Below, one piece after another: positions 341 through 16,328 of a stretch of DNA of 64,000 bases. The stretch is from Bacillota bacterium (lineage in GTDB: Bacteria; Bacillota; Dethiobacteria; DTU022). Both the position numbers and the translations under genes were made by a program. Below the pieces are notes generated by a model. That model was not told the origin of the DNA. It searched no databases and worked only from the letters and a program-made list of their open reading frames with translations. The stretch spans positions 6,609 to 70,608 of the forward strand of contig JAKPEE010000128.1 in assembly GCA_029552125.1 (NCBI GenBank). Reading direction: 5' to 3'. The number at the start of each line of letters is the position of its first letter. The stretch's first letter is position 1.

Positions 341-3300
341 ATGACGGATCAGACAATCCCAAGTGTGGGCCAAATCCTGAAAGGAACTCTGTTTGATGAG
401 CCGATGCGCATCGAAACAGTTGAGCAGGGTGGTAATAATAACTGGGTGCTCGGTCTTGTCGGTATGCAATCGGAACGTTTCCGCCGGGTTACCCTTAGCC
501 AAGAGGACCTATCCGGCCTTACTGTTACTGATCCAAATTTTACATATACGGGCGACGGCCGGCTGTTGCGATTAGGTTTACAGGCATATTCCCTCGGCAT
601 AGCTTACGAATTTGATCCCTATTTCGGACTGTCTATCTCCCGGGTAGACCCTCTGCCGCATCAACTCGAAGCAGTTTATGATTACCTTTTAAAACTGGCC
701 CGGATCCGTTTTCTGCTGGCTGACGATGCCGGCGCGGGTAAAACTATTATGGCCGGCCTGCTTATCCGTGAATTGCAGCTGCGTGGGCTGGCCGAACGGA
801 TCCTGGTTGTCTGTCCTGCGAACCTCTCTTTTCAGTGGCAACGCGAGCTGAAGGAAAAGTTTGATGAGACGTTCATCGTTCTCAAAGGGGCCAATATCCG
901 CGACCAGTTTGGGGTTAACCAGTGGCTGGAGCAGAACAAGGTGATTACCTCCCTTGATCTGGCCAAGAGGGAAGAGATCTTGCCCGGTTTAAAACAGGTT
1001 CATTGGGATCTGGTTATAATCGACGAAGCCCACCGCATGTCCTGGACTCCACCATCGCGTAAAACTGCCCGCTATGCTTTGGGCGAAATCTTGCGCGACA
1101 ACTCCGATCATATCCTTATGCTTACTGCGACACCACACAAGGGTGATCCGGAAAACTTCACCCTTTTTCTGCAGCTTCTGGATCGGGACGCCTACGCAGA
1201 TGTCCGTTCTATTCATGAAGCGATGGAACGGCGCCGCGCACCTTTTTACCTGCGACGCACCAAGGAGGCCATGGTTTATTTTCCGGAACGCCAGGCTGAC
1301 GGAACCTGGGTGGCGAAGAAGATTTTCACAAAGCGAATACCCAATACGGTTAATTTTCAGATCGACGGCGCCGAATTTGAACTCTACCAGAAAATAACCC
1401 GCTTTGTGAAGCGGCAAAGCGCCAGGGCAGCTGCCCGGGGCGATGATCCGCGGGCCCGCGCTGTCGGCTTTCTCATGTCTCTTTACCAGCGCAGGCTGGC
1501 TTCCAGCACCTACGCCTTGCGTCAAAGCCTTGAAAAACGGGTCCGCAGGCTTGAAGAGGGGTTGAAACGCGCCCAAGAGCTGGTCATGACAGTTCCTCCT
1601 AACCTTCCTACAGCGGAGGAAATGGAAGAGATGGAGGACTACGAACGTGAGAAGCTGGAAGAGCTGCTTGAAGCAATTACTTTAACCTCCAATGCTGAAG
1701 AAATTCTTGAAGAGATTAACGAGCTCAAAGAGCTGGCTGCACAAGCCCAAGCTGTGGAAGAATCAGGCTCCGAGGCCAAGCTCTCCAAACTAAACGAACT
1801 GTTGCATAAGGAAGGTTTCTTTGACAACCCCAAGCAGCGCCTGCTCGTATTTACGGAGTTTAAAGATACGCTCGACTACCTTGTGGAAAAACTTAAAGGA
1901 TGGGGGTTCAGTGTCGGCTATATCCACGGCGGAATGAGCCCGGGGTCACGTGATGAGCCCGGCGCCCGCCTTTATGCCGAGCAGCAATTTCGCGAGGGCG
2001 CCATCCAGGTGCTGGTGGCCACCGAGGCGGCGGGGGAAGGAATCAACCTGCAGGTTTGCAACATTCTCTTTAACTACGACATCCCCTGGAACCCCAACCG
2101 CCTGGAGCAGCGAATGGGCCGGATCCACCGTTATGGACAGCTAAAAGACTGCTTAATCTTCAACTTCGTAGCTGCCAACACCATCGAAGGCCGCGTTTTG
2201 CGGCGTCTTCTGGAAAAGCTTCAGGAGATCAGAGATGCTTTAGATGATGATGCTGTTTTCAATGTTCTGGGTGAAGTGCTGCCTTCCTCTCATATGGAGC
2301 GTATTTTGCGCGACTATTATGCAGGCAAGCTAAGCGATGTGGATCTGGAAGAAAGGTTGCTGGAAAATGTTGATGAAAGCCGTTTCCGGGCAATCTGCCA
2401 AACCGCCCTGGAAGGGTTGGCTTCAAAAAAGCTTAACCTGGAGATGCTGGTCGAGCGGAGGGCCCGTGCCCGGGAGCGGCGCGTGGTTCCGGAAACAATT
2501 GCCCGCTTTTTTCGCGAGGCGGCAGCGTATATTCCCCTGGAACTGAAAATCGTAAAGGGAATGCCCCATACTTTTGAAGGTTTTCGGACACCGCCGGCTT
2601 TAAAGCGAATCGAACAGATACCCGGTTGGAAGTTGCCGCCGCTTGCTGCCCGTTATCCCCGCTGCTCCATGGAACGGGACACGGCGGAGAAACATAACCT
2701 GGAGTGGGTTACACCCGGCCATCCCTTGTTTGAGGCGGTGCGCAGGCATACCCTGGAGAGGGCCTTCAAAGACCTTGAAGTGGGAGCTGTTTTTTATTCA
2801 CTGAATCATGAAGAGCCATCTCGTATCGATTTTTACCGCGCCCGGGTGGTAGACGGCCTGGGCAAAGCCGTGCATGAACGCCTCATTGCCGTGGAGCAGA
2901 CCGGTTCGGGAAAGTTTTACCAGCGAGAACCCAATGTTTTAGGAAACTTTACTCCGGCAGATAGGCCCGGTGAACTTCCTGATCTGGCCAGGGCTCCTGA
3001 GCCATCAGCTTGGCTGCACGAAAAAGTGCTGCAGCCTTTTCTCGAAGAAACGCGAGCCGAGCGCGTTGCCGAGGTCGAGCGTGTCGCGGCACATGTAGAG
3101 CTTTCTCTTACCGAACTGATACAGAAAGCCGATGAAGAAATCGGCAAAGCATATGGGGATAAGGAAAGGGGAATTCCCGGTGCCGAGGGCCGGCTGGCCC
3201 TGGCGGAGAACCGTCATGCGGAACTTTTAAACCGGCGAGAGCGCCGCCGCACGGAGCTTGCACAGCAGCGCTCTCTTACCCTGCAAGGAGTGGAACGTAT

Positions 3301-3757
3301 TTCTTCCGTCCTTGTGCTGCCTCATCCCGAGCGCGAGGCGCCGGAGGTGCGCCGCATGCGGCCGGACCTGGAAACGGAAGCTACCGCCATGCGGGTGGTC
3401 ATGGAATACGAAAGAAGTATGGGACGACAGGTGTACGATGTTTCTGAGAAAAATCTCGGCTATGACATAACCAGCCTTGATCTGAATTCCGGCGAACTGC
3501 GGCTGATCGAGGTTAAGGGGCTGGCTGCCGCTTCGGGCACTATTTTACTTACACCCAACGAGCGTCGCGTGGCCGAGGATCGCCGCGATTGCTACTGGCT
3601 TTACGTGGTCACAAACTGTGCATCTCAGCCTACCTTGCAGGAACCAATCAAAGATCCGGCGCGCTTCCCCTGGCATGAAGTAACCAAGGTACAGCACTAC
3701 TGGCTGGAAGTGGATGCCATGACCAGGCCGATGCAGGTGAGGGAGAATGATTCATAG
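341..3757 (+). CDS. SNF2-family SF2 helicase fused to a C-terminal DUF3883-like PD-(D/E)xK nuclease domain; helicase component of an Hma/MADS-like operon
   Basis: 1138-aa ORF. Helicase motifs LLADDAGAGKT (I), VIIDEAHRM (II), LMLTATPHKG (III), VLVATEAAGEGINLQ (V), QRMGRIHRYGQ (VI). The C-terminal GYDITSLD...LIEVKG looks like a D..ExK nuclease core as in DUF3883. Confidence 0.85.
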   Translation: MTDQTIPSVGQILKGTLFDEPMRIETVEQGGNNNWVLGLVGMQSERFRRVTLSQEDLSGLTVTDPNFTYTGDGRLLRLGLQAYSLGIAYEFDPYFGLSISRVDPLPHQLEAVYDYLLKLARIRFLLADDAGAGKTIMAGLLIRELQLRGLAERILVVCPANLSFQWQRELKEKFDETFIVLKGANIRDQFGVNQWLEQNKVITSLDLAKREEILPGLKQVHWDLVIIDEAHRMSWTPPSRKTARYALGEILRDNSDHILMLTATPHKGDPENFTLFLQLLDRDAYADVRSIHEAMERRRAPFYLRRTKEAMVYFPERQADGTWVAKKIFTKRIPNTVNFQIDGAEFELYQKITRFVKRQSARAAARGDDPRARAVGFLMSLYQRRLASSTYALRQSLEKRVRRLEEGLKRAQELVMTVPPNLPTAEEMEEMEDYEREKLEELLEAITLTSNAEEILEEINELKELAAQAQAVEESGSEAKLSKLNELLHKEGFFDNPKQRLLVFTEFKDTLDYLVEKLKGWGFSVGYIHGGMSPGSRDEPGARLYAEQQFREGAIQVLVATEAAGEGINLQVCNILFNYDIPWNPNRLEQRMGRIHRYGQLKDCLIFNFVAANTIEGRVLRRLLEKLQEIRDALDDDAVFNVLGEVLPSSHMERILRDYYAGKLSDVDLEERLLENVDESRFRAICQTALEGLASKKLNLEMLVERRARARERRVVPETIARFFREAAAYIPLELKIVKGMPHTFEGFRTPPALKRIEQIPGWKLPPLAARYPRCSMERDTAEKHNLEWVTPGHPLFEAVRRHTLERAFKDLEVGAVFYSLNHEEPSRIDFYRARVVDGLGKAVHERLIAVEQTGSGKFYQREPNVLGNFTPADRPGELPDLARAPEPSAWLHEKVLQPFLEETRAERVAEVERVAAHVELSLTELIQKADEEIGKAYGDKERGIPGAEGRLALAENRHAELLNRRERRRTELAQQRSLTLQGVERISSVLVLPHPEREAPEVRRMRPDLETEATAMRVVMEYERSMGRQVYDVSEKNLGYDITSLDLNSGELRLIEVKGLAAASGTILLTPNERRVAEDRRDCYWLYVVTNCASQPTLQEPIKDPARFPWHEVTKVQHYWLEVDAMTRPMQVRENDS

Positions 3758-3787
3758 ATGAACTATTTGAAAGGTGGGCAAATTTGA

Positions 3788-5738
3788 ATGATAACTTGGG
3801 ACGAGGGTTTATTACCCGAACAAAGAAATGCCGCCATGCATATTGGCTCAAACGCATATCTTCTTGCCGGACCAGGAACGGGTAAAACCCTAACTTTGAC
3901 TAGACATATTTGTTACCTTATAGACGTAAAGGGTGTTCAACCAGAGTTAATATGTGTCTTAACATTTACACGTGCTGCAGCTCGAGAACTTTGCCAGCGA
4001 GTTAAAACCGTAGTAGGACATGAAAGAATGCCTAAGATTTTTACTTTACACTCTTTTGCTCTCAGGCAAATACTACGGAATTCTGGACGGCTCACGTTGG
4101 TTCCGCAACCTCTTAGAATCGCTGATGATTGGGAAGAGCGTAATATTATTTTGGAAGACCTGAAAACCTTACTTGGGTTAGGTAATATTAATGAAGCAAG
4201 AGATTTACTAAATAAGCTGTCAGCTGATTGGCAACACCTTACAGTTGAAAAAGGTGAATGGGAGCAACGCTTTGCTAACCCTGCTTTTCTTGGGGCGTGG
4301 AGAGAGCACCGTGAAATATATGGTTATGTTCTTCGTGCCGAACTTGTTTATCAATTAAAACTTGCTTTAGAGCAATACGACGATTTTGTCCTGGAGGGAC
4401 CACCACGGTATCTTCTTGTTGATGAGTATCAAGATCTTAACCGGTGTGATTTGGCAGTTGTGAAAGCGATTGCAGATACTGGTGCTGAAATCTTTGCCGC
4501 TGGTGATGACGATCAAAGTATTTATGGTTTCAGAATGGCTCATCCGGAAGGGATACGTCGGTTCTCTAGGGATTATGCTGATGCCTGTAAACTAGAGCTT
4601 GAAATATGTAAGCGTTGTGATCAAGAAATCCTTGAGCTCGGGTTGTTTGTTGCTTGTCAGGACTACGCTAGGTTGAGAAAGCCTCTTCGGGCGGAAGATG
4701 GTCGTCAAGGTGCAGAGATAGCTCTATTGCGTTTTCAGAACCAATTTCAGGAAGCACAAGGTATTGCACTGCTTTGCCGATATTTGATTTACACCCATAG
4801 AGTTAAACCCGAACAAATACTTATTCTTCTACGAGCGGACCGCAATGGTTGCTTTTCGTCAGTAATCCGACAACAATTGGAGCAACATGTAGTCCCGTGT
4901 AATGTTGCTACTGCAGATACAGATCCATTAAATGAGAGAACAATGCGTATAGTACTATCCTTTCTAAGGTTACTAGAAAATGCAAGTGACCATCTAGCTT
5001 GGAGGACGCTACTTAACCAACGTGATAATAGAATAGGCCCAGGAGCTATAAATTCTGTTTATCAATTCGCTAGAACACAAGGCTTAAGTTTTACGGAAGC
5101 ACTCATTAATATATCTAATGATCCCTCTCTTATAAGTGAACGGTATGGACGATTAATTAATGCCGAAGTTAAAGCCATCAAAGAAATATTACTCGAATTG
5201 CTTACGTTATTACCTTCCGAGGAAGAAGATACAAGTTTGATTGAATCTCTAAGCAGAATAATCAACCACCTTGTGAATTCACCGGATGAACGTAGAATAA
5301 TTCAGGATCACATTAATAAAATTATTGAAATGGCTGAACCAAATTCCATTGGGGATCTTTTACGTGCCATTCAGGTTTCGAAAGAAGACATTGAGCAAGA
5401 AATAGATGAGGGCAAAGTTAATATCTTGACTATGCATAAAGCTAAGGGGCTTACAGCGGAAGCTGTAATTATTGCAGCTGCAGAAGATGAAATACTTACC
5501 TGGTCGTGCTGTAGGTAACATGATTGGTGATGAACGGAGACTTTTATATGTTTCTTTAACAAGAGCAAAACATTATCTATTTATTACATACTGCAACAGT
5601 AGAACTGGACAGCAACGTCATACAGGGAGGACTTCCGGTAATACACGCCGATCTCTTACTCGTTTTTTACAAGGTGCACCAATAACTTCTCAACGTGGAA
5701 TGGAATATATACTAAATTTAAGTGAGAGACTGCCATGA
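3788..5738 (+). pseudogene. UvrD/Rep/PcrA-like SF1 helicase interrupted by a single +1 frameshift near 5493-5518
   Basis: The 576-aa ORF (3788..5518) carries GPGTGKT (Walker A), LLVDEYQDLN (II), AAGDDDQSIYGFR (III) and TMHKAKGLTAEAVII (V). Motif VI, ERRLLYVSLTRAKHYLFITY, continues in the next frame (ORF 5472..5738). The total length of 1951 nt is 3n+1. Hand-counted 60-nt samples give 33-43% GC against about 55-68% in the flanking genes. Confidence 0.8.
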
Positions 5739-8728
5739 TACCTAAAGAATGTAAGCGAATTGCTGAAGTTGATTTTCCCATTGCAGAGGTTTCTAAACAT
5801 TCAGTCCGGGAAAAATCTATACGCCATGGGCATCCTTCTACGCTGCACTTGTGGTGGGCGCGGCGGCCGCTGGCTGCGTGTCGGGCTATGCTTCTGGCGT
5901 TGCTTTTACCTGACCCCTGTGATTCCAATTGCCCGGAAGAATTTAAAATAAATGCGCGAAAGCTATTACCACAGTTGACCGGTAATATAGGTCCTGAGGA
6001 TATAGATTTAAGAAAGGCCATCTTAAAGTTTATCGGGAATTTTGCCGACTGGGACAATGCCGGGAACCCTTTATTTCTTGAAATAGGGCGGGGGTTGGTT
6101 AAAGCAGCCTATCCTGAAGAAAATCCGCTGGTAGCAGATCCTTTTGCCGGAGGGGGGTCGATCCCCCTGGAGGCGCTGAGGCTTGGCTGCGAAGCTTTTG
6201 CCGGCGACTTGAATCCCGTGGCCTGCCTTATTTTGAAAGTCATGCTTGAGGATATCCCCCGGCATGGACCGGAGCTGGCGGAAGAACTTCGCCGTGTTGG
6301 AGCAGAAATTAAGAAAAAAGTAGAGCAGGAACTGGCCGAGCTATATCCCCGGGATCCGGACGGAGCCACGCCTATTGCCTATCTTTGGGCGCGCACGGTT
6401 AAATGCGAATCGCCGCACTGCGGCGCGGAGATACCTTTAGTCAGGTCCTTTTGGCTTTGCAAGAAGAAAAACCGGAAAAGGGTGCTGCGGTATAAGATAA
6501 TCAAAGCCGTTGAAGGGCCGCCAACTGTCGAGTTTGAGATATTTGAACCGAAGTCTGATTCAGAAGTGGCCAAAGGAACCGTGTCCCGCGCCAGGGCAGC
6601 CTGCCTTTGCTGCGGCACTATTCTGCCCCCTGAGCGGGTGCGGGCGCAGTTAACTGAACAGCGCGGCGGGGCGGATGTCATATTTGACCAGGAGGGGCGT
6701 CGTATCGGTGGCGCACGCCTGCTGGCGGTGGTCACTTTGCGGCCCGGAGAGCAGGGCCGCTATTACCGGTTGCCTGCAGAGCGGGATTATGTTGCAGTGA
6801 AAAAAGCAAAAGATCGGCTGGCAAGGATATTGGAAAAATGGGAACACGGGGGTAAGCAGGGATTATGCCCGGTGCCGGATGAGCCTTTACCGCCAATTGG
6901 AACGCTGGGTTTTCGTGTTCAACGATACGGCATGCTTCAATGGGGTGACCTGTTTACAGCTAGGCAGAAGGCGGCATTATCAACTTTAGCGTTGTTTGCT
7001 AGAAAAGTACAATTGTCACAAAACGTGCCAGCTAATGAGGCAGCAGCATTAGTAGTGAATCGATGTGCAGACTATATGAGTTCAATTTGTGTATGGCATA
7101 TCCCAAAGCAACTCATTGCACATACGTTTGGGCGTCAGGCTCTCCCTATTACATGGGATTTTTGCGAATGCAATCCTTTTGGGGAGGGACCAGGAAATAT
7201 AAATGGTGCGGTTCAGTGGGTTTCAAAGGTTGTAACCTCTTGGCCTAACTTTGGTAGTAATATTCAGCAAAGCCCTAGTGCCATGGTTCAGCTAGCTGAT
7301 GCTACTAAACATCCACTTCCTGATGCTACTGCAGCCATATGGTTTACTGATCCACCATATTATGATGCCATTCCATATGCAGATCTTTCAGATTTTTTTC
7401 TTGTTTGGCTTAAGCGAGCACTGCCGGATCATCCATTGTTGCGTGATCCCTTTGACCCCCAAAATATACTCTCACCCAAGCGCCAGGAGGCAGTGCAGGA
7501 TGAGACAAAAAAGGACAACGGACAGATTAAAGACAAAGCATGGTTTGAGAATACGATGGCCAAAGCTTTTGCCGAAGGGCGTCGTGTCTTAAGCAATGAA
7601 GGAGTCGGCTCTGTTGTTTTTGCTCATAAAACTACAGAAGGCTGGGAGGCTTTGCTTACTGGGCTTATTTGGGGTGGTTGGACGATAACCGGATCATGGC
7701 CTATTGCTACAGAGATGGGTTCGCGTCTTAGAGCTCGCGATTCTGCTGCACTCGCTACCAGTGTCCATCTTGTCTGCCGACCCCGGCCCGATGACGCGCC
7801 TGTCGGTGACTGGGGTGAAGTGCTGCGCGAATTACCGCAGCGGGTGGGTAACTGGATGGAATACCTGCAAGAACAGGGTGTTCGCGGTGCGGACCTGGTT
7901 TTTGCCTGTATCGGGCCGGCATTGGAAATTTACAGCCGTTACTCCAGGGTTGAAACCGCCGCGGGGGATGAAGTTAAACTGGCCGCGTACCTGGAGAAGG
8001 TTTGGGAAGTGGTCGGTCGCATTGCTTTGGAGCAAGTGCTGGGTACTGCCGAGGCCCGGGCCCGCAACGGTGCTGCAGGCGCCCTGGAGGAAGATGCCAG
8101 GTTAACCGCCCTATTTCTTTGGACAATTCAGAGTACCAACGGCCAGCGGAATAATGAATCCGCTGATGATGAGGAGGAAAAAGACGACACCAGGGTTGCC
8201 TTTGCAAAAGGTTACAGCCTGGTCTTTGACGTGGTGCGCCGCTTCGCCCAACCGTTGGGGATTGATCTTCCCAGGTGGGAAAACCGGATCATCAAAACCG
8301 AAAAAGGTGTAGTCAGGCTACTGCCCGTCAAGGAGAGGGCCAGGCAACTTTTCGGTGAAGAGGGAACTGCATCTGCGGCGGAATGGATGGAGAGCGAACC
8401 GCAGACAGATATCCAGTTGGTGCTTTTCCCGGAACTTCAGCGGGAGCGCTCGCCTAAAATTCGGGGAAGAGGCCGCCGTAAAATTGCCGTGGACCCCTCG
8501 GCCCTGGAGAGCGTCAGCAGGGAAGAGGTGACTACCCTGGACCGGGTCCATGCCGCCATGCTGCTTCAGGCCGGCGGTCAAACCAACGCCTTGCGGGCGC
8601 TGGTCAAGTCTGAGGTGGAACGCGGCCCTGATTTTTTGCGCCTGGCCAACGCTCTTTCCGCCCTTTATCCCACGGGCAGCGAAGAGAAAAGGCTTCTCGA
8701 TGCCATGTTGCTGGCTGTGCCGCGATAG
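5735..8728 (+). CDS. DUF1156/COG1743-type DNA methyltransferase (DPPY, N6A/N4C class) with an internal Zn-ribbon
   Basis: 997-aa ORF. The N-terminus EVDFPIAEVS...HGHPSTLHLWWARRPLAACRA is typical of DUF1156. SAM motif DPFAGGGSIPLEA; catalytic FTDPPYYD; Cys pairs CESPHCG...CLCCG. The start overlaps the upstream stop as ATGA. Confidence 0.85.
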   Translation: MIPKECKRIAEVDFPIAEVSKHSVREKSIRHGHPSTLHLWWARRPLAACRAMLLALLLPDPCDSNCPEEFKINARKLLPQLTGNIGPEDIDLRKAILKFIGNFADWDNAGNPLFLEIGRGLVKAAYPEENPLVADPFAGGGSIPLEALRLGCEAFAGDLNPVACLILKVMLEDIPRHGPELAEELRRVGAEIKKKVEQELAELYPRDPDGATPIAYLWARTVKCESPHCGAEIPLVRSFWLCKKKNRKRVLRYKIIKAVEGPPTVEFEIFEPKSDSEVAKGTVSRARAACLCCGTILPPERVRAQLTEQRGGADVIFDQEGRRIGGARLLAVVTLRPGEQGRYYRLPAERDYVAVKKAKDRLARILEKWEHGGKQGLCPVPDEPLPPIGTLGFRVQRYGMLQWGDLFTARQKAALSTLALFARKVQLSQNVPANEAAALVVNRCADYMSSICVWHIPKQLIAHTFGRQALPITWDFCECNPFGEGPGNINGAVQWVSKVVTSWPNFGSNIQQSPSAMVQLADATKHPLPDATAAIWFTDPPYYDAIPYADLSDFFLVWLKRALPDHPLLRDPFDPQNILSPKRQEAVQDETKKDNGQIKDKAWFENTMAKAFAEGRRVLSNEGVGSVVFAHKTTEGWEALLTGLIWGGWTITGSWPIATEMGSRLRARDSAALATSVHLVCRPRPDDAPVGDWGEVLRELPQRVGNWMEYLQEQGVRGADLVFACIGPALEIYSRYSRVETAAGDEVKLAAYLEKVWEVVGRIALEQVLGTAEARARNGAAGALEEDARLTALFLWTIQSTNGQRNNESADDEEEKDDTRVAFAKGYSLVFDVVRRFAQPLGIDLPRWENRIIKTEKGVVRLLPVKERARQLFGEEGTASAAEWMESEPQTDIQLVLFPELQRERSPKIRGRGRRKIAVDPSALESVSREEVTTLDRVHAAMLLQAGGQTNALRALVKSEVERGPDFLRLANALSALYPTGSEEKRLLDAMLLAVPR

Positions 8729-8742
8729 GAGCGATTAATGAA

Positions 8743-9174
8743 ATGTTAACCCAGGCGGAAGCAAACGCCTTAATCGCCATGCGGAAGCGTTTTGTCGCCC
8801 CGCGCCCTATTTCCCTGCCGCCGGGAATTGACGAAACACATGAACTAATTGGTGAAGATAAGCGCGAGCATTTTCTGCTTGATCTTTGGCGCGGGACAAT
8901 GCGCCTTTCAAAGTATAAAATGCAGACCAGGGGGCGTATAATTGTCGTACTGGTACGCCTGGATATAAACGGAGCGCCACATACTAATCCGGATGGGCAA
9001 ATACTTGATGGCACTCATTTACACCTTTACCGGGAAGGCTTTGATGACAAATGGGCTTATCCAGTTGATCCGGAATTGTTTCATGATGTCGAGGATGCGG
9101 GAACTGCATTTAAGGATTTCTGTCGCTATTGTCATATAGAGGAGATCCCTCCATACCAGGAGGTGTTATTATGA
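8743..9174 (+). CDS. hypothetical 143-aa protein embedded in the defence operon
   Basis: Clean ORF 14 nt after the methyltransferase stop, and its stop overlaps the next start (ATGA). I cannot place any motif. The conserved-looking core is VVLVRLDINGAPHTNPDG...THLHLYREGFDDKWAYP. Confidence 0.6.
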   Translation: MLTQAEANALIAMRKRFVAPRPISLPPGIDETHELIGEDKREHFLLDLWRGTMRLSKYKMQTRGRIIVVLVRLDINGAPHTNPDGQILDGTHLHLYREGFDDKWAYPVDPELFHDVEDAGTAFKDFCRYCHIEEIPPYQEVLL

Positions 9175-9944
9175 ACCTACATGAATGCCGCCAACTGATT
9201 GATGCATATCTGGATTGGTTGCGCAAGGGACTCAGCGTAGAGCATCTTGGCCAATCCTGTGAATTGACGACTCCTTTTTTGGATAGACATAACGATCACT
9301 TGCAAATCTATGCCTCAACCGAAAATGGAAAGATTATTCTCAGCGATGACGGTTATATCCTTGCAGATCTACGCACAAGCGGGTTGGAAATGGTAACACC
9401 GAAACGTAAAGCCGTGTTGCAATCAATTTTAAACGGATTTGGGGTTAAGACAGACGGCAAACGTCTTTTTGTTGAAACTTCTTCGCGAAATCTTGCTCAA
9501 AAGATGCATTCGTTGATTCAGGCCATGATTTCCATTAACGATATGTTTGTATTAGCTCAACCGCGTGTTGCTTCCTTCTTTTGGGAAGATGTCCGCGCCT
9601 ACCTGGATCAGCATGATGTGCGCTATAGTCCCCGTGTTAAGATTTCAGGACGTTCCGGGTACGATCATGCGGTTGACTTTTTAATTCCTAAATCAAGAAC
9701 ACGCCCCGAACGTATAGTTCAAGCGATCAATGCCCCGGATAGAAATACAATCTCTTCATATCTTTTTATCCTGGAAGACACGTATGAAATAAGAGGTGAG
9801 GAATCAGAAGCTTATGCTTTTCTTAATGATCAGCACAGGACAATCGGCGGTGACGTAATAGAGGCGCTGGAGGTCTATAAGGTTATTCCCGTGTTGTGGT
9901 CGCAGCGGGAAAAAGAAAAGTATGTGGAAGCATTGGCCGGTTGA
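9171..9944 (+). CDS. DUF1828/DUF1829-like protein
   Basis: ATG at 9171 is preceded by CCAGGAGGTG and overlaps the upstream TGA. TPFLDRHNDHLQIYAS..GKIILSDDGYILADLRTSG resembles DUF1828. The C-terminal ISGRSGYDHAVDFLIPK resembles DUF1829. Family assignment is from memory. Confidence 0.55.
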   Translation: MNLHECRQLIDAYLDWLRKGLSVEHLGQSCELTTPFLDRHNDHLQIYASTENGKIILSDDGYILADLRTSGLEMVTPKRKAVLQSILNGFGVKTDGKRLFVETSSRNLAQKMHSLIQAMISINDMFVLAQPRVASFFWEDVRAYLDQHDVRYSPRVKISGRSGYDHAVDFLIPKSRTRPERIVQAINAPDRNTISSYLFILEDTYEIRGEESEAYAFLNDQHRTIGGDVIEALEVYKVIPVLWSQREKEKYVEALAG

Positions 9945-10012
9945 GGAATGGAATTTAAATATGTAATTCTGTGGATTAGCAAGTAGTGAAAAAAACCCGA
10001 GGTGATCCCTAC

Positions 10013-12784
10013 ATGGAACCATGGTACAAAATAGCCACACCGCGTAAAGAAGTACGGGAAGGGCGCTCTTTTAACCCGGATGAATTTGCCATCCACCTGG
10101 AGCAGGTTATCGCCGGAAGCGCCCCCGAGGACTACCGGGACCCGGGGCAGTTCTTTGCCCGCACTTTCTTTACCCGGGCTCTGCGCGATCATGCCGGGAT
10201 GGCGCTCCGGCGCCTGGCCGGTGAGACCTCGAATACAGCCCCGGTGATGACCTTGATTACCCAGTTTGGAGGAGGCAAGACCCATACCCTGACGACGTTA
10301 TATCACCTGGCCGCTGAAGGCGCTTCTGCCGCAGAATACCCGGGGGTGGCCGATTTAATCAGGGATGCCGGTTTAAACCAGGTGCCTGCAGCCCGGGTGG
10401 CGGCTTTTGTCGGCAATGCCTGGGATCCTCAAGAGGGCCGCGAAACACCCTGGATCGATCTTGCCCGGCAGCTGGCCGGGGAAAACGGGGTTAGGGAGTT
10501 GGGTCCGGCAGCTCATACTACGCCGCCGGGGACCGAAGCCCTGGGGCGGGTTTTTAAAGCCGCGGGAGGGCCAGTACTGATTCTTTTTGACGAGGTGTTA
10601 AATTTCCTGAACCGGCACCGGGGCATGGCCGAGCAGTTCCATTCTTTTATTCAAAACCTTACCGTAGCCATAACCGGCACCACCAATTGCGCCGCTATGA
10701 TCAGCCTGCCCCGCAGCCAGGTCGAGATGACCGAATGGGACATGCAGTGGCAGGAAAAGATCACCAAGGTGGTCAGGCGCGTGGCCAAGGACTTGATTGC
10801 CAATGATGAGACGGAAATCAGCGAGGTGGTGCGGCGCCGCCTTTTCGATGATCTTGGTAACGAGCGGGTTTGTAAAAAAGTTGCCGGGGTGTACGCCGAC
10901 TGGTGTTTTGAGCGCCGCGCACAGCTGCCTCCTGAGTGGACAGCTGTTGATAGCGCCGTTACCGAGGCCAGGGCCAGGGAACACCTGCGTAAGCGTTTCG
11001 AGTCCTGTTACCCCTTTCATCCGGCGTTGCTGTCGGTTTTTCAGCGCAAATGGCAAGCCCTCTCACAGTACCAGCAGACCAGGGGCACATTGGCCATGCT
11101 GGCACAGTGGATTTCCTGGGCTTACCGGACGGGATTTACCGAAGCCCGCCGCGAGCCCCTGATTACTCTCGGCTCTGCGCCCCTGGAGGTGCCGGAGTTT
11201 CGCAGCGTGGTGCTGGGCCAGTTGGGCGAATCCCGGTTGGTCGCTGCTATCGATTCAGATATAGCCGGTGAGCAATCTCATGCCCGGACCCTGGATGTAG
11301 ATACCAGCGGGCCGCTGCGTAATATTCATCGCCGGGTTGGCACGGCGATATTTTTCGAATCTTCGGGCGGGCAGGTTGACAGGGTGGCCCATCTGCCTGA
11401 GCTTCGTTTTGCACTCGGGGAACCGCAAGTAGACACGGCTTCTGTTGACAATGCTGCCTTTGCCCTGGAAAACAAATCGTACTTTATCCGCCGGGTCGGC
11501 ACGGACGGTTTCCGGATCGGCTACCAGCCGACCGTGAAGAAGGTGGTAAACGACCGGCGGGCCTCTCTGGATGAAGAAACAGAGATTATTCCGGCTATGC
11601 GCGCCCTGGTCAAGCAGGAATTCGAGCGGGGGTCGAATGTTCCACTGGTATGGTTCCCTACCGATAGCGCCGCAGTGCAGGATACACCCAGGTTAACCCT
11701 GGTTGTTGTTGATCCGGCGGTTGAATGGACCGGAAAAGGACAGATCCGCCAACAGATAGCGGAATGGACCAGGCGGCGCGGCAATTCGGATAGACTCTAC
11801 CCGGCGGCTTTGGTTTGGTGCTTGAAGAAGCCGGGACGTGAGCTGCGGGAAAAGGTAGAGCTGTGGCTGGCCTGGCGTAGGGTGCAAAAGGAGGTTGCCG
11901 AGGGCACTCTGGGTGGCGAATTCGACCGCGCTGACCTGTCGGATATTCGAGGGAATGTGGCCGAAGCGGAGACAGCCGCCAAAGATGAGGTCTGGGGCGG
12001 CTATCGGTACGCGGTTATCCTGGATAAAAATGAGCCTGATTGGCTCAAGGTCATAGACCTGGGAGCGGGACATGCCAGCAGCGGAGATACACTGAGCGGC
12101 CGGGTAATTACAGCATTGACAACTGGAGGTTTATTGAGCCAATCTGTAGGTGCAGGCTATATTGAACGGCATTGGTGGCCCCCTGCTCTGAAGGAATCCG
12201 GTGCCTGGCCCCTATCCAGCCTGCGGAAGAGCTTCCTTGACGGCTCGCTGACCCGGCTGCTTGACCCGGATGTTACTTTGCGGCAAAAAATTGTTGATTT
12301 TGTAGCACGAGGCGACTTCGGCCTGGCTTCCAACCCGAAAGCCGACGGCACCTATGAGCGGGTCTGGTTTGCTGAAAGAATCGAGCCTGAAGAAGTAAGT
12401 TTTGAACCGAAGGTATTTCTTTTACTGAAAGACAAAGCTAAAGCTTTAAAAGCGCCGCCCGAACCCGGTGTTGTGCCTTATCCTCCACACGGCGGCATAT
12501 CATTGCCGCCAGCGGATCCAGAACCTGTTCCTCAACCGGAGCCTCAGCCGGGGCCGGTTCCGGCCGGCAGCAAACGCACATTTCGGATTTCCGGGGAAAT
12601 CCCGCCTGAAATCTGGAACCGCCTGGGAACAAAGATAATCCCTAAACTCCGCAGCGGCAGCGATTTGCAGGTCAATGTATCATTTATCGTTACCGTTGAC
12701 GAACATCAGGCCCACAACCTCCAGGCTGAACTCAGGCAATTGCTGACAGATCTGAATCTGTCTGAAAAAATAAAAATTGATTGA
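10013..12784 (+). CDS. DUF499 (COG1483) AAA-type ATPase
   Basis: ATG at 10013 lies after GAGGTGA. The N-terminal MEPWYKIATPRKEVREG is typical of DUF499. P-loop-like ITQFGGGKTHTL; Walker B-like VLILFDEVLNF. Pro-rich linker, then a C-terminal domain. Confidence 0.8.
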   Translation: MEPWYKIATPRKEVREGRSFNPDEFAIHLEQVIAGSAPEDYRDPGQFFARTFFTRALRDHAGMALRRLAGETSNTAPVMTLITQFGGGKTHTLTTLYHLAAEGASAAEYPGVADLIRDAGLNQVPAARVAAFVGNAWDPQEGRETPWIDLARQLAGENGVRELGPAAHTTPPGTEALGRVFKAAGGPVLILFDEVLNFLNRHRGMAEQFHSFIQNLTVAITGTTNCAAMISLPRSQVEMTEWDMQWQEKITKVVRRVAKDLIANDETEISEVVRRRLFDDLGNERVCKKVAGVYADWCFERRAQLPPEWTAVDSAVTEARAREHLRKRFESCYPFHPALLSVFQRKWQALSQYQQTRGTLAMLAQWISWAYRTGFTEARREPLITLGSAPLEVPEFRSVVLGQLGESRLVAAIDSDIAGEQSHARTLDVDTSGPLRNIHRRVGTAIFFESSGGQVDRVAHLPELRFALGEPQVDTASVDNAAFALENKSYFIRRVGTDGFRIGYQPTVKKVVNDRRASLDEETEIIPAMRALVKQEFERGSNVPLVWFPTDSAAVQDTPRLTLVVVDPAVEWTGKGQIRQQIAEWTRRRGNSDRLYPAALVWCLKKPGRELREKVELWLAWRRVQKEVAEGTLGGEFDRADLSDIRGNVAEAETAAKDEVWGGYRYAVILDKNEPDWLKVIDLGAGHASSGDTLSGRVITALTTGGLLSQSVGAGYIERHWWPPALKESGAWPLSSLRKSFLDGSLTRLLDPDVTLRQKIVDFVARGDFGLASNPKADGTYERVWFAERIEPEEVSFEPKVFLLLKDKAKALKAPPEPGVVPYPPHGGISLPPADPEPVPQPEPQPGPVPAGSKRTFRISGEIPPEIWNRLGTKIIPKLRSGSDLQVNVSFIVTVDEHQAHNLQAELRQLLTDLNLSEKIKID

Positions 12785-13200: not shown

Positions 13201-15108
13201 ATGAAAAAGCCAACCCGCGAGCTGGTTGAAGCCTTTTTTTCCTGGTTCTGGAATAGTGAACACTCCACATATGAAGATCATTATGCACAAATGGTGACGC
13301 AGGAAAATCTGTCCCAGATGGAACGTGATGAGTTCATAAATTTCTTCTACCAGTTCGCCTACGACGGCGGAAAGGTGCAAACCGGTGGGTATCGGACAGC
13401 CTCGGACTTCCGCGCCACCATTGAGGAGAAGTATGACAAATTCCGGCTGTTTATTTTGGAACCGTTCACGGAATCGTTCGATGAATACCGGTGGCTTGAG
13501 CGCGCCCGCGAGTTTCCATACTTCGGTGTGGGCCTGGCGACAATCTTCCTAAACCGTGTTGACAAGAAGCGTTTTGCTATCGTCAACAATAAGGCGGTTG
13601 AGGCAGTTAAGCTCTTCGGCGTGTCAGTCCCAACGGGTATCGTGGCCCGCTATCAAGCCGTCCGCGACGCCTGGCGGCAGCTTATCGAGTGGTATCCCGA
13701 ATTTGAAACCTTTTTCCGCACGGATGCACTCAGCCAGTTCCTTATCGGCGAGGATTCCGGCAAGCCGTGGGCTGATAAACTCAGGAAGCATAATGGTGAG
13801 TTAACAGAGAAGCGGTATTGGATCTACGCGCCGGGGGAGCGGGCCAGGCACTGGGACGAATACAGCCGCAACGGCCTGATGGGTGTTGGATGGGACAATA
13901 TTCGGGAAGATCTCTCCTTATATCCAACAGAAGAAAAATTGAGGGAAATGTACAACGAGCGGTATGGCGACCAGGCCACAGATGTGGATTTCCGGCAGTT
14001 GTGCGATTTTGTGCATAAGATGCGGATAGGTGATGGCGTTTTCGTCAAGCGCGGGACCAAGGAACTTGTTGGATATGGTGAAGTGTCGTCGGCATATTTC
14101 TATGACCCGGAGCGGCCGGAATACCGTCATCTTCGCCGGGTGAAATGGAAGTATACCGGCAAATGGACGATTCCGGATGACTGGACTAGTTTGCCGGCAA
14201 AAACGCTAACGGAACTCCATGACAGTAATCGCGTACAGCGTTACCTGGCGCTACTCAGGGATTCGAACAAAATAATAAACCCGGAATACCCGCTGGCACA
14301 ATTCGCTGCAGATACCCATTTTGACATAGAGAATATCCAGCGTTGGGTGCGAGCAATTGAACGAAAGAAACAGGCGATCTTCTACGGGCCACCGGGAACG
14401 GGGAAGACGTTCGTTGCAGAGAAGATGGCCCGGCACTTGATTGGCGGCAGCGACGGCTTCAGCGAGATTGTCCAGTTTCATCCTTCCTATGCCTATGAAG
14501 ATTTCATACAAGGATTGCGGCCGCGTGCTGTATCCGGCGGGGGCTTGGAATATGCCATGGTCCCGGGGCGCTTCCGGGAATTCTGCAGACGGGCCCAAGA
14601 GTGCAGCGGCCGGTGCGTCTTGATTATAGACGAGATAAACCGGGCGAATCTCTCGCGCGTGTTTGGAGAGCTAATGTTCTTGCTCGAATATCGCGATCAG
14701 GCTATACCGTTGGCCGGTGGAGAGCGATTTCAGATACCGGCTAACGTCAGGATTATCGGGACTATGAATACAGCTGATCGCTCAATAGCCCTTGTAGATC
14801 ATGCGCTGCGCCGCCGCTTTGCCTTTCTGGGGCTGTATCCAAATTACGAGATACTGCGGCGCTTCCATGCCAATACAGGCTTCTCACCAGAGGGCCTTAT
14901 TGGTCTGCTCGAACGGCTGAATGCCGCCATCAATGACCGGCACTACTCGGTGGGCATCAGTTTTTTCTTATCTCCAAACATAAAGGAAGAGATTGAAGAC
15001 ATTTGGCAAATGGAAATTGAGCCGTACATCGAGGAGTTATTTTTCGATCAGCCGGACAAGGCGGCCAGTTTCGCATGGGAGAAAATCAAAGCAGAGATTT
15101 TGAGATGA
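13201..15108 (+). CDS. mcrB: McrB-like AAA+ GTPase (type IV restriction subunit) with an N-terminal extension of about 390 aa
   Basis: FYGPPGTGKTF (Walker A), LIIDEINRANLSRVFGELMFLLEYR (the McrB signature) and IIGTMNTADRS. The N-terminal 390 aa precede the motor. Confidence 0.85.
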   Translation: MKKPTRELVEAFFSWFWNSEHSTYEDHYAQMVTQENLSQMERDEFINFFYQFAYDGGKVQTGGYRTASDFRATIEEKYDKFRLFILEPFTESFDEYRWLERAREFPYFGVGLATIFLNRVDKKRFAIVNNKAVEAVKLFGVSVPTGIVARYQAVRDAWRQLIEWYPEFETFFRTDALSQFLIGEDSGKPWADKLRKHNGELTEKRYWIYAPGERARHWDEYSRNGLMGVGWDNIREDLSLYPTEEKLREMYNERYGDQATDVDFRQLCDFVHKMRIGDGVFVKRGTKELVGYGEVSSAYFYDPERPEYRHLRRVKWKYTGKWTIPDDWTSLPAKTLTELHDSNRVQRYLALLRDSNKIINPEYPLAQFAADTHFDIENIQRWVRAIERKKQAIFYGPPGTGKTFVAEKMARHLIGGSDGFSEIVQFHPSYAYEDFIQGLRPRAVSGGGLEYAMVPGRFREFCRRAQECSGRCVLIIDEINRANLSRVFGELMFLLEYRDQAIPLAGGERFQIPANVRIIGTMNTADRSIALVDHALRRRFAFLGLYPNYEILRRFHANTGFSPEGLIGLLERLNAAINDRHYSVGISFFLSPNIKEEIEDIWQMEIEPYIEELFFDQPDKAASFAWEKIKAEILR

Positions 15109-16328
15109 CTGCAGGAAAGCTTCGCATTGTTGAACTTACCGAATACCAAACCCGTTCCTTACGCGAAGATGAACTGGCGGAGGAGATCGGCAGGGCCATC
15201 CACACTTTTTATGGCAAGCAAATTGCCGTCCAACCGCCGTCCTTTCTCACCGACAGGTGCTGGCAACTGACGTCACAAGGATGGGTCGGCTATATCCCCC
15301 TTACGGATGCCTTTCACCTTTCGCTGGTTCCCAAGGTTCCCGTTGCAAACCTGTTCCGTATGCTGGAGTACGCTTATCGTCTTGATTTTACAATACTTGA
15401 AGGATTGATGGACTCGGAGTCGATAACAGAACTGTACGAGCGGCTGGCGCTTGTACTGGCAAAGCGTGTGCTGGATCGGATTCGCCGGGGAGCATACCGC
15501 TCTTATGTGCCGCAAAATGACTATCTTCCCTATATCCGTGGCAGGATCGACGTCATGGATCATGTGAGAAATCTTCAGCGAGTTGCACTGCCGTGCAATT
15601 TCGAAGAGCACACAGCAGACCTGGAAGAGAACCAGATTCTGCTCTGGACTCTTACAAGAATCCTGGAAAGCGGAATATGCACTGAGCGGAGCCTGCCGCA
15701 TATTCGACAAGCACGCCGTGCATTGCTCGGGCTTACGACACTTCAACCTTTCTCCGCGCGGGCATGCAGCAATCGGCTCTACAACCGTCTGAACCAGGAC
15801 TACGAACCGTTGCATGCGCTGTGCAGGTTTTTTCTTGAGCACATCGGACCGACACATCGGCTAGGGAACCACCGCATGCTCCCAATTTTAATCGATATGG
15901 ATAGGCTGTTTGAGCTGTTCGTTGTTGAATGGCTAAGGAAGCACGTTCCCGCTCGATACTCTGTCCTGGGTCAGGAGAACGTGCAATTTCACATGGGGCA
16001 TATCGTCTCCATCAGCATCGACATTACTGTAGAAGATTTGGAAACCGGGCAGACGGTGTTTGTTCTGGATACGAAGTACAAGGCAGCCGCAAGTCCGGCG
16101 GCGGCCGACTTAGAGCAGGTCGTTGCGTATGCAGAGGCAAAGGGCTGCACGAGGGCTGCCCTAATCTACCCCACTGAGCTTGCATGCCCCATCTCCGGTT
16201 TCTGGGGTAGGGACATCAGTGTGCGTTCTCTGGCCTTCCGTCTTGACGGGGACATTGAGGAGTCCGGCCACCGTCTCCTGGAGGAGCTCCGATTGTGGGC
16301 GGAGTCCGGGGCGCCCGGCTCCCGGTGA
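15105..16328 (+). CDS. mcrC: McrC-like nuclease subunit
   Basis: ATG at 15105 overlaps the mcrB TGA (ATGA). GWVGYIPL...LSLVPK is a typical McrC N-terminus. The C-terminal VLDTKYK...DLEQVVAYA is a PD-(D/E)xK-like core. Confidence 0.8.
   Translation: MTAGKLRIVELTEYQTRSLREDELAEEIGRAIHTFYGKQIAVQPPSFLTDRCWQLTSQGWVGYIPLTDAFHLSLVPKVPVANLFRMLEYAYRLDFTILEGLMDSESITELYERLALVLAKRVLDRIRRGAYRSYVPQNDYLPYIRGRIDVMDHVRNLQRVALPCNFEEHTADLEENQILLWTLTRILESGICTERSLPHIRQARRALLGLTTLQPFSARACSNRLYNRLNQDYEPLHALCRFFLEHIGPTHRLGNHRMLPILIDMDRLFELFVVEWLRKHVPARYSVLGQENVQFHMGHIVSISIDITVEDLETGQTVFVLDTKYKAAASPAAADLEQVVAYAEAKGCTRAALIYPTELACPISGFWGRDISVRSLAFRLDGDIEESGHRLLEELRLWAESGAPGSR

Follow-up and report, generated by a model that had tools for sequence, protein, structure and literature searches.

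Does the run of closely packed genes at positions 341-12784 of the window (the whole stretch of 64,000 nt analysed here) represent a new variant of an anti-phage system, or a known system that carries additional genes? The locus is chromosomal and belongs to an uncultured Bacillota bacterium, an organism seen in anaerobic-digester metagenomes. A first-pass annotation, made from the sequence alone, had recognized the Hma helicase-methylase-ATPase trio together with extra genes, and had taken the extra genes as the mark of a novel system variant. The first part of this reading is borne out by PADLOC, Pfam and NCBIfam profiles and by the linkage of the trio in every relative examined; the second is not. 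The locus is an ordinary example of the known anti-phage cluster Hma (Payne et al. 2021, PADLOC), alternatively named Type-1 DUF499-centred BREX-related (BR) system (PMC12839542), with unrelated passenger defence genes. Very probably it is a complete system that holds two independent passenger cassettes in its two known insertion slots, one between hmaA and hmaB (A-B slot) and one between hmaB and hmaC (B-C slot). The extra genes make no new variant, since embedding is usual in Hma, two of them form the already catalogued PDC-M24, and the third, a helicase gene, is a pseudogene here. The features of the locus are as follows.

341..3757, + strand: hmaA, SNF2-family translocase fused to a C-terminal NOV_C/DUF3883 PD-(D/E)xK nuclease domain
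3788..5518, + strand: embedded cargo 1, N-terminal part; UvrD/PcrA-like SF1 helicase (GajB-like), motifs I-V, premature TAA at 5516-5518
5490..5492, + strand: frameshift site, an AAA run versus AA in the intact allele, splitting motif VI from the rest
5520..5738, + strand: remnant of the C-terminal part of embedded cargo 1, in the +1 frame (MIGDERRLLYVSLTRAK...); contains motif VI, ends in an ATGA overlap with hmaB
5735..8728, + strand: hmaB, DUF1156-type N6-adenine (DPPY) DNA methyltransferase
8743..9174, + strand: embedded cargo 2a, PDC-M24A; DUF6978 protein of 143 aa
9171..9944, + strand: embedded cargo 2b, PDC-M24B; DUF1828+DUF1829 protein of 257 aa, its start overlapping the upstream stop (ATGA)
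10013..12784, + strand: hmaC, DUF499 AAA+/STAND-like ATPase; alternative GTG start at 9986

On the + strand, the gene order reads hmaA, one gene, hmaB, two genes, hmaC. ORF calls reproduce the tight same-strand packing described earlier at each of the junctions 3757/3788, 5735-5738, 8728/8743, 9171-9174 and 9944/10013. The count of seven genes has to be lowered to six, because five junctions and six products had been listed. All three core ORFs are intact (1138, 997 and 923 aa), with intact catalytic motifs in HmaA, HmaB and HmaC, and both PDC-M24 genes are likewise full length with their motifs intact. PADLOC defines Hma by location on one strand, a single copy of each core gene, at most three embedded genes between neighbours and no core pseudogene, and this is the arrangement found at 341-12784.

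HmaA matches its PADLOC profile (PDLC00659) with E 2.2e-178 over aa 15-1091 of 1138 and contains the Pfam domains SNF2-rel_dom, Helicase_C and NOV_C (formerly DUF3883; E 1.2e-22, aa 1013-1099). Its helicase motifs comprise motif I (DDAGAGKT, aa 128-135), DEAH (aa 228-231) and motif VI (aa 590-600), and the nuclease motif is D1042...E1057-V-K1059. The extra C-terminal PD-(D/E)xK REase domain that marks the helicase of Type-1 BR systems is present and looks active by these residues. Cross-matches to DrmD (E 5e-122) and BrxHI/HII (E 1e-108) were obtained, the HmaA profile scoring far higher (PADLOC).

HmaB is matched by PDLC00661 (E 9e-115) and PDLC00660 (E 1.6e-113), by Pfam DUF1156 (E 1.7e-23, aa 14-68) and, under the cutoff, by NCBIfam DUF1156_antiphage (E 6e-64). 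Motif I (DPFAGGGS, aa 135-142) is separated from DPPY (aa 539-542) by an insert of about 400 aa, the FxGxG motif is present, and two Zn-ribbon-like Cys clusters lie at aa 224-230 and 290-294. As in Type-1 BR systems, the protein begins with a helical DUF1156 domain, and its MTase core encloses a target-recognition domain (TRD). Matches elsewhere are to PglX and mad2 (E 5e-4), both weak, and to MTase_II (E 1e-40), ranked far below HmaB (PADLOC).

HmaC corresponds to PDLC00662 (E 6.1e-92, aa 1-768), to Pfam DUF499 (E 5e-13) and, again under the cutoff, to NCBIfam DUF499_antiphage (E 9e-31). A Walker A motif (GGGKT, aa 86-90) and a Walker B motif (LFDEV, aa 191-195) are present; the profile match covers neither the Pro-rich linker nor the small C-terminal domain. 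There is no N-terminal HEPN domain in HmaC, although roughly one in two Type-1 BR systems has one (PMC12839542); its absence, the host, an uncultured Bacillota MAG, and the cargo distinguish the locus from the described systems.

With E-values of about 1e-92 to 1e-178, chance matches to the core profiles are ruled out. The profile searches, which matched HmaA, HmaB and HmaC throughout, agree with the products as first described: an SNF2 helicase fused to a DUF3883-like PD-(D/E)xK domain, a DUF1156 Zn-ribbon DPPY methyltransferase and a DUF499 ATPase. The comparison of homologous loci likewise reveals a conserved linkage of helicase, methylase and ATPase, with the order of the trio retained in L005, L006, L014, L018, L019, L027, L030 and L032. 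A placement of methylase and ATPase in the classical type I/II/III R-M families had been named as evidence against Hma; both fall outside these families, as NCBIfam returned only DUF1156_antiphage and DUF499_antiphage and no R-M family.

The A-B slot contains the remains of a UvrD-like helicase. Assignment of this gene to the UvrD-like SF1 helicases stands (Pfam UvrD-helicase E 4e-47 plus UvrD_C in the N-terminal part), its description as one ORF does not, as the frame from 3788 stops at 5516-5518. The C-terminal remnant, in an open frame of 5472/5520-5738, matches Pfam UvrD_C positions 325-349 (E 1e-6). The lesion is a 1-nt insertion of an extra A, the window reading GATGAA-A-TAC where the intact allele has GATGAATAC. 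Among the other alleles, L001 shares GATGAAATAC with the window and L002 has GATGAATTAC, while five contigs (L022-L026) have GATGAATAC and encode an intact protein. This protein, P0241 (649 aa, from other samples), has the full SF1 UvrD architecture; the window fragment is 100% identical to its first ~570 aa, and the remnant matches its aa 578-649. A programmed +1 frameshift is rejected, for the site lacks a slippery or prfB-like context, the gene is known in an intact form, and the base inserted in a second allele is another one.

Because the frameshift cuts off motif VI, the GajB-like helicase is most likely inactive in this genome. A C-ATG (ATG at 5520) comes directly after the TAA at 5516-5518, and the split protein could in principle still function as two chains. 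The best PADLOC matches of the helicase are GajB profiles (E 8.6e-46). GajB is a UvrD-like helicase that senses DNA ends. In contrast to Gabija, the helicase here is solitary and frameshifted; PADLOC detected no GajA (the OLD-family ATPase-TOPRIM partner) anywhere in 1-17 kb, and a Gabija assignment fails. A scan of metagenome contigs with P0241 gave one locus, on the same contig as L030. A related helicase is solitary within Hma in L032 and adjoins a type II R-M system in L033.

The two genes in the B-C slot constitute PDC-M24, a phage defence candidate of PADLOC-DB v2 (bioRxiv 10.1101/2024.01.29.577857). The 143-aa protein, which had been called unassignable, is DUF6978 (Pfam PF22398, E 1.8e-41), i.e., PDC-M24A (PADLOC E 3.5e-48). 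It has 558 homologues and an invariant cluster, H80-x-N82-P83...H92-x-H94...E98; this His/Asn/Asp/His-x-His/Glu constellation has the appearance of a metal site or an active site. A confident AF2 model (pLDDT 84, pTM 0.83) is mostly beta and has no match among solved structures in the PDB; a cupin-like reading of the HxH...E motif receives no support from Foldseek. The second protein was correctly recognized as DUF1828/1829-like: PDC-M24B (PADLOC E 2.2e-97) carries both Pfam domains, DUF1828 (E 9e-28) and DUF1829 (E 3e-26). Its AF2 model has a pLDDT of 63, and the best, weak, Foldseek fold matches are VC1899, Card1, Cdn1 and Kpn2I (E 5e-3 to 3e-2). A PD-(D/E)xK nuclease assignment for DUF1829 finds no support, given this poor pLDDT, Foldseek matches that all lie above E 1e-3 and a candidate Lys174 that is not invariant; no nuclease motif is invariant in the protein, and a profile search against the PDB was empty.

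The two genes are adjacent, as the PDC-M24 definition describes, and overlap by 4 bp (9171-9174), which makes them a translationally coupled pair. In every checked locus the neighbour of the DUF1828/1829 gene is DUF6978, as an intact gene or a remnant. All close pairs (proteobacterial, metagenomic and Hma-embedded) retain the 4-bp overlap, and pairs of Staphylococcus and Latilactobacillus phages are adjacent with short gaps. Pairs without Hma occur on chromosomes, on plasmids and in prophages; they were found in L012, L016, the IncP-1 plasmid pRSB223, the Acetobacter plasmid pAOF1 and S. aureus phage 37; in the latter and in Staphylococcus/Latilactobacillus prophages, the pair sits between repressor and integrase. 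The copies on which PADLOC defined the candidate were embedded in BREX, DISARM or type I R-M, not Hma; the hmaB-hmaC slot, the plasmids and the prophage lysogeny modules set the present copies apart from these. One further pair, beside CRISPR-Cas in L011, was not accepted as a stand-alone copy, as the piece carries an hmaB 3' end and an hmaC 5' end; the records of L011 and L030 (GCA_900198705.1) are short contigs strung together with 100-N spacers. The PDC-M24 pair is a mobile two-gene module and most likely forms a second layer of anti-phage defence or exclusion that acts independently. It could even be a self-sufficient system of immunity or exclusion that works by a new mechanism, at odds clearly below even.

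Exchange of genes between relatives bears on the status of the extra genes. The A-B slot is occupied by UvrD in the window, L030 and L032, by SIR2+HerA in L019, L027 and L028, where the core of close relatives is 85-97% identical to the window, and elsewhere by Fic (L014, L018), SIR2 (L004, L005), DUF3800 (L006) or YhcG/PDC-S02 (L007). In the B-C slot, L005 has DUF3800 and L006 an unknown gene, whereas the DUF6978 pair is present there in at least six distinct Hma loci with 62-97% core identity to the window, which gives a functional tie of the pair to Hma some probability beside pure hitch-hiking. Swap boundaries coincide with core gene ends: homology of 98% between the window and L027 breaks off after window position 3748, and its restart falls precisely on the hmaB ATG (5735). 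The composition differs as well, with a GC3 of 0.32 (GC 0.41) in the helicase and 0.45/0.42 in the pair, against 0.51-0.61 in the Hma core and 0.57 in the rest of the window. A scan of genome contigs with HmaB, which covered species representatives other than the source genome, gave four loci only, which show the cargo diversity. Judged by the SIR2+HerA swaps, the foreign GC3 and the pairs found without Hma, helicase and pair are demonstrably exchangeable, compositionally foreign cargo. This is also the published norm, with embedded cargo in 62.7% of 1,485 Hma systems (bioRxiv 10.1101/2024.01.29.577857) or 66.5% (PMC11232893). The experimentally tested hmaABC of Halomonas meridiana SCSIO 43005 (PMC11232893) shares the three families and their order with the window and has both slots filled. 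Its A-B slot contains Septu and its B-C slot an AAA_21 pair, whereas the window carries the frameshifted GajB-like UvrD and PDC-M24.

Among the other explanations, the one that survives best regards only the helicase slot as freely exchangeable and the DUF6978 pair as a lineage-specific accessory of an Hma sub-clade, e.g., a back-up sensor and effector that would respond to inhibition of the primary system. Its position exactly between hmaB and hmaC is shared by the window, L030, L019, L027/L028, L014/L015, L018, L020 and the L011 fragment, loci whose A-B cargo varies among UvrD, SIR2+HerA and Fic; auxiliary effectors in BR loci have been proposed as back-ups (PMC12839542), and the weak best fold matches of M24B are sensor-plus-nuclease proteins. 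However, solitary copies of the pair adjoin unrelated genes or reside on plasmids and in the lysogeny modules of prophages, and DUF3800 fills the B-C slot of L005, whose core is at a similar distance to the cores of L014 and L018. The apparent co-divergence of pair and core, considered as a sign of integration, is uninformative because most family members are ~63-70% identical to the window whatever their context. The derivation of PDC-M24 from BREX, DISARM and type I R-M copies and the poor M24B model without an invariant nuclease motif also speak against such an accessory, which we regard as unlikely.

Appreciably less credible is a decaying, non-functional locus in which the frameshift would be one sign of defence-island loss. 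Lesions are seen: the helicase is frameshifted here, two independent 1-nt insertions hit it at the same site and codon in the population, a 2-bp deletion frameshifts DUF6978 in L030 and L031, and core genes are broken in L027 (HmaB in fragments) and L019 (HmaA split). However, they strike different genes in different genomes, some may be MAG assembly errors, and in the window neither the core ORFs nor the two PDC-M24 genes are shortened or have lost a motif. As a weaker corollary of the reading of the pair as a stand-alone system, indels in different cargo genes within a near-identical population, with the core intact, would record selection against the cost of the cargo.

Lower still ranks an integrated six- or seven-gene novel variant with helicase, DUF6978 and DUF1828/1829 as obligate parts beside the Hma trio. 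The single strand and the tiny gaps or ATGA overlaps suggest one transcript, and L030 has the identical six-gene order. Nevertheless, SIR2+HerA replaces the helicase in relatives whose core is 85-97% identical, and others have Fic, SIR2, DUF3800 or YhcG, both cassettes are foreign in GC3, the pair occurs without Hma, and the core is still intact where the helicase (here) or DUF6978 (L030, L031) is frameshifted. Together with embedding as the published norm for Hma, the cargo swaps have already largely refuted this highly improbable reading.

That the locus is MADS, type 3 BREX or class 1 DISARM instead of Hma has next to no probability, for the matches of HmaA to DrmD and BrxHI/HII, the weak ones of HmaB to PglX and mad2 and the relation of DUF499 to BrxC are in each case far exceeded by the Hma profile scores, and no PglZ, BrxA, BrxB, BrxF or BrxL, no DrmA, DrmB (DUF1998) or DrmC (PLD) and no MAD6-8 were found in 1-17 kb. 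Type 3 BREX (BrxC, PglXI, BrxHII, PglZ, BrxA, BrxF) resembles the locus in that its ATPase is homologous, its methylase contains a nested TRD and its helicase is of the SNF2 type, methylation self-marking being presumed in both. It differs in PglZ, BrxA and BrxF, whose profiles matched nothing in the locus or its flanks, and in the helicase, which in the window carries a PD-(D/E)xK domain that looks active and may serve as effector. Neither PglZ, as in BREX and Type-3 BR, nor the HKD/PLD helicase of Type-2 BR is present among the ORFs of 1-16.3 kb. With regard to class 1 DISARM, the locus has no DUF1998 or PLD protein, and the SNF2 helicase cross-matches DrmD and DrmA below HmaA. MADS (mad1-8 of Pseudomonas aeruginosa SMC4386) is likewise a multigene defence operon with a methyltransferase, but its detection requires MAD6, MAD7 and MAD8 (bioRxiv 10.1101/2023.03.30.534895), equivalents of which are missing from 1-17 kb. 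The earlier statement that the trio is the core of MADS finds no backing here: the one link is the marginal mad2 match (E 5e-4) on the methylase fold, and HmaC matches HmaC/DUF499 profiles only.

How would this Hma system with its passengers act? That the mechanism is essentially unknown, as previously written, is partly outdated: HmaA by itself protects against T4, helicase motifs and nickase domain both being required (PMC11232893), and the family has been re-analysed as Type-1 BREX-related, with an R-M-like model proposed (PMC12839542). From the Halomonas HmaA experiments and the comparative family analyses we infer a working model. HmaB would mark the DNA of the host by methylating adenine at N6 within a motif that its inserted target-recognition region recognizes. 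HmaC would be an ORC/STAND-like ATPase containing winged-helix modules, and may assemble on or scan DNA and license the effector. The SNF2 motor of HmaA would translocate along invader DNA, which its C-terminal PD-(D/E)xK domain would nick or degrade. Cargo genes would be co-transcribed with the operon and act on their own, and the GajB-like UvrD helicase would have formed a third defence layer. The roles given to HmaB and HmaC stay tentative, because in Halomonas growth of T4 on a host that expresses HmaB did not improve its escape over that of wild type, and HmaA was active without HmaB or HmaC (PMC11232893).

Downstream of hmaC, two further genes bear on the earlier statement that there is no stand-alone restriction endonuclease. 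It holds inside 341-12784, and not beyond, as an McrB/McrC pair follows 417 bp downstream.

13201-15108, + strand: McrB-like AAA_5 GTPase; Pfam AAA_5 E 3e-21, NCBIfam McrB E 1e-46
15075-16328, + strand: McrC; Pfam McrBC PF10117 E 3e-40, NCBIfam McrC E 4e-31

The NCBIfam scores of McrB and McrC are both under the equivalog cutoffs. McrBC (13201-16328) is a type IV restriction pair, separate from and outside Hma, with which it makes up a small defence island. No tRNA, integrase or transposase was found at the island ends within the window, and a scan for promoters and terminators gave sites no more frequent than in shuffled sequence.

The locus mainly confirms the published view that Hma (Type-1 BR) systems are modular scaffolds which swap defence cargo in two intergenic slots. 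Its relatives provide a natural comparison set: nearly identical cores combine PDC-M24 in one slot with either UvrD or SIR2+HerA in the other, the boundaries of the swaps are exact, and knock-out alleles exist in nature. The set could guide work on the independence of the cargo, on the roles of HmaB and HmaC and on PDC-M24 as a real defence system.

On the plus strand, 341-12784 reads as a series of long ORFs, whose ends fall at the five junctions proposed in the first-pass annotation (3757/3788, ATGA 5735-5738, 8728/8743, ATGA 9171-9174, 9944/10013). These junctions define six genes rather than the seven counted there. One of the six, the UvrD-like gene, spans more than one ORF: the frame from 3788 closes at TAA 5516-5518, and the part ending in the ATGA overlap with hmaB (5472/5520-5738) lies in a different frame. 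The minus-strand ORFs inside this stretch are short, run antisense to long genes with profile support, and are regarded as spurious. McrB and McrC genes begin 417 bp past the operon.

341-3757, + strand: hmaA; PADLOC HmaA (E 2.2e-178); Pfam SNF2-rel_dom, Helicase_C and NOV_C (formerly DUF3883; E 1.2e-22)
3788-5738, + strand: UvrD/PcrA-like SF1 helicase, cargo in the A-B slot (between hmaA and hmaB); best PADLOC matches are GajB profiles (E 8.6e-46)
5735-8728, + strand: hmaB; PADLOC HmaB (E 9e-115); Pfam DUF1156 (E 1.7e-23)
8743-9174, + strand: DUF6978 protein; Pfam DUF6978 (E 1.8e-41); PADLOC PDC-M24A (E 3.5e-48)
9171-9944, + strand: DUF1828+DUF1829 protein; PADLOC PDC-M24B (E 2.2e-97)
10013-12784, + strand: hmaC; PADLOC HmaC (E 6.1e-92); Pfam DUF499
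13201-15108, + strand: McrB-like AAA_5 protein; family profile matches
15075-16328, + strand: McrC; family profile matches

The first-pass annotation had recognised an Hma trio, linked it to MADS and considered it a possibly novel variant. The recognition was right: the three PADLOC profiles match and the motifs are intact, namely DDAGAGKT, DEAH, motif VI and the nuclease residues D1042/E1057-V-K1059 in HmaA, DPFAGGGS (aa 135) and DPPY (aa 539) in HmaB, and GGGKT and LFDEV in HmaC. An insert of ~400 aa with Cys clusters separates the two HmaB motifs. HmaC has no N-terminal HEPN domain; its Pro-rich linker and small C-terminal domain fall beyond the profile match, and this region seems compatible with the C-terminal module that has been reported as hypervariable in this family (PMC12839542). 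As the earlier reading expected, methylase and ATPase stay outside classical R-M families in NCBIfam, whose only matches to HmaB and HmaC are its anti-phage models for DUF1156 and DUF499. Judged by sequence, the locus agrees with Hma, alias Type-1 BREX-related (BR), on every feature that could be tested, whereas it fails on a defining component of MADS, BREX type 3, DISARM, Gabija and classical R-M alike. Thus, it is best read as a further member of a known system; neither the MADS link nor the claim of novelty holds.

By exact-sequence look-ups, the window belongs to an 80.5-kb contig from a TPA MAG labelled Bacillota bacterium (PriA HOL16931.1). Genes near-identical to those of the window are present in anaerobic-digester metagenomes and a Dethiobacteria MAG. 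Comparison with database loci reveals a conserved trio with exchangeable cargo.

Cargo of the A-B slot and of the B-C slot (between hmaB and hmaC) in compared database loci
L004: A-B, SIR2-like; B-C, contig ends inside hmaB
L005: A-B, SIR2-like; B-C, DUF3800
L006: A-B, DUF3800; B-C, unknown gene
L007: A-B, YhcG/PDC-S02; B-C, contig ends inside hmaB
L014, L018: A-B, Fic; B-C, DUF6978 pair
L019, L027, L028: A-B, SIR2+HerA; B-C, DUF6978 pair
L030: A-B, UvrD; B-C, DUF6978 pair
L032: A-B, UvrD; B-C, none

Each shared gene is 85-97% identical to the window in L019, L027, L028 and L030; identity is 62-72% in L014 and L018. At the DNA level, L027 follows the window at 98% through hmaA to 3748 (L027 3273), 9 nt short of the hmaA stop, while homology restarts exactly at the hmaB ATG (5735; L027 6977) at only 87%. 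From these boundaries and the unequal identities, the A-B cassette has been swapped cleanly between core genes, and the core operon itself is a recombinant mosaic. GC3 is 0.32 in the helicase, 0.45/0.42 in the pair of DUF6978 and DUF1828/1829 genes, 0.51-0.61 in the core genes and 0.57 in the remaining window. Synteny, swap and GC3 results fit the published picture of Hma embedding: Payne et al. (bioRxiv 10.1101/2024.01.29.577857) found embedded genes, nearly always co-oriented, in 62.7% of 1,485 Hma systems, and Liu et al. (PMC11232893) reported insertions in 66.5% and named the region a defence-gene hotspot.

Core genes are broken in two relatives: hmaB lies in fragments in the Dethiobacteria MAG (L027 6977-9986), and hmaA is split into ORFs of 745 and 383 aa in L019 (1-3300), which reflects true decay or else faulty MAG assembly. 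Gene neighbourhoods across N runs in L011 and L030 (GCA_900198705.1, FZPS01 records) are artefacts, as these nominally multi-megabase contigs consist of short ones joined by 100-N spacers about every 2-10 kb.

The frameshift in the helicase gene is genuine, and its site is polymorphic. The N-terminal ORF is 100% identical to its closest database protein, the intact 649-aa P0241, which reads ...AAAEDEYLPGRAVGNMIGDERRLLYVSLTRAK.... Public assemblies hold three DNA alleles (intact, +A, +T), all at the codon of site 5490-5492: the intact allele GATGAATAC in five contigs from several samples (L022-L026), the +A allele GATGAAATAC in the window and the independent Illumina contig L001, and GATGAATTAC in L002. 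The one extra A in the window leaves a 576-aa product that has lost motif VI. No slippery context was found at the frameshift, and we therefore treat the gene, on its sequence, as a recent pseudogene, most likely dead in this genome. In principle, ribosomes could reinitiate at ATG 5520, just past the TAA, and make a C-terminal fragment of 72 aa. The two different 1-nt insertions hit the same spot amid otherwise identical DNA, and several metagenome contigs end at or near it. A homologue 65% identical to the embedded helicase lies outside Hma (L033 9001-13164, L034 2608-6771), adjoining a type II R-M system (N6_N4_Mtase + MvaI/BcnI) and followed by conserved proteins of 98 and ~630 aa with no Pfam match; these genes may represent a separate candidate system centred on the helicase.

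The 8743-9174 product, previously called unassignable, is a DUF6978 protein by the profiles listed. PADLOC lists PDC-M24 as a candidate, which it defined from cassettes lying inside BREX, DISARM or type I R-M systems. In all checked loci the DUF1828/1829 gene directly follows the DUF6978 gene, intact or remnant; the 4-bp overlap is kept in the window, its Hma-embedded relatives, L012, L016, pRSB223 and pAOF1, and short gaps separate the two genes in Staphylococcus and Latilactobacillus phages. Outside Hma, solo pairs occur beside clpB (L012), amid metabolic genes (L016), on IncP-1 plasmid pRSB223 (43% and 48% identity), on Acetobacter orientalis plasmid pAOF1 (AP018516.1; L009), in a Latilactobacillus prophage and in S. 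aureus phage 37, whose repressor and integrase genes flank the pair; ORF031 of this phage is the DUF6978 homologue (hhalign probability 98.4%). A S. epidermidis plasmid carries a 78-aa DUF6978 remnant with a DUF1828 gene. The deposited pAOF1 annotation lacks the 148-aa DUF6978 ORF (L009 7558-8004), which overlaps by 4 bp the DUF1828/1829 gene annotated there as 'prophage protein'. A solo pair beside CRISPR-Cas in L011 was rejected as an artefact of N-spacer concatenation. Both proteins match PHROG families of unknown function.

The DUF6978 structure model is confident and mostly beta (pLDDT 84, pTM 0.83); it has no match among PDB structures (best E 0.29) and one to an uncharacterised viral protein (TM 0.52). 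Residues H80, N82, P83, H92, H94 and E98 are invariant (H-x-N-P-D-G ... H-x-H ... E), a core also kept in ORF031 and the 78-aa remnant. For DUF1828/1829 the model is of low quality (pLDDT 63), and its weak top matches (VC1899, Card1, Cdn1, Kpn2I; E 5e-3 to 3e-2) hint at, without establishing, a sensor-plus-nuclease layout. In L030 (9790-9800) and the independent L031 (2695-2705; window 8960-8970) a 2-bp deletion truncates DUF6978 to 80 aa, and the DUF1828/1829 gene is intact. Cell survival with DUF1828/1829 thus does not depend on DUF6978, making a simple toxin (M24B)/antitoxin (M24A) pairing less likely.

Downstream, an N-terminal segment (aa ~207-318) of the McrB-like protein matches PADLOC PDC-S02 profiles, related to DUF1016_N/YhcG, instead of a known McrB DNA-reader domain; this segment may serve as an atypical module for target recognition. 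The first half of the window (1-32000) has a lower, more variable GC (0.41-0.55) than the second (32000-64000; 0.54-0.63); no integrase, transposase or tRNA marking an island boundary was found in the window, and several ORFs at 23.5-31 kb lack family matches.

Comparative analysis relates the trio to type 3 BREX and regards it as an R-M-like module (PMC12839542). Halomonas HmaA by itself guards E. coli from T4, requiring its SNF2 motifs and Mn/Mg-dependent nickase domain (PMC11232893). In such a scheme, HmaB would methylate self DNA, HmaC would scan DNA and license the effector, and HmaA would translocate on and nick invader DNA. Its weak point is that the sole published test of HmaB-dependent protection was negative (PMC11232893). 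The cargo probably acts independently of Hma. What stays of interest at this locus is the PDC-M24 candidate module and the natural allelic series around it.
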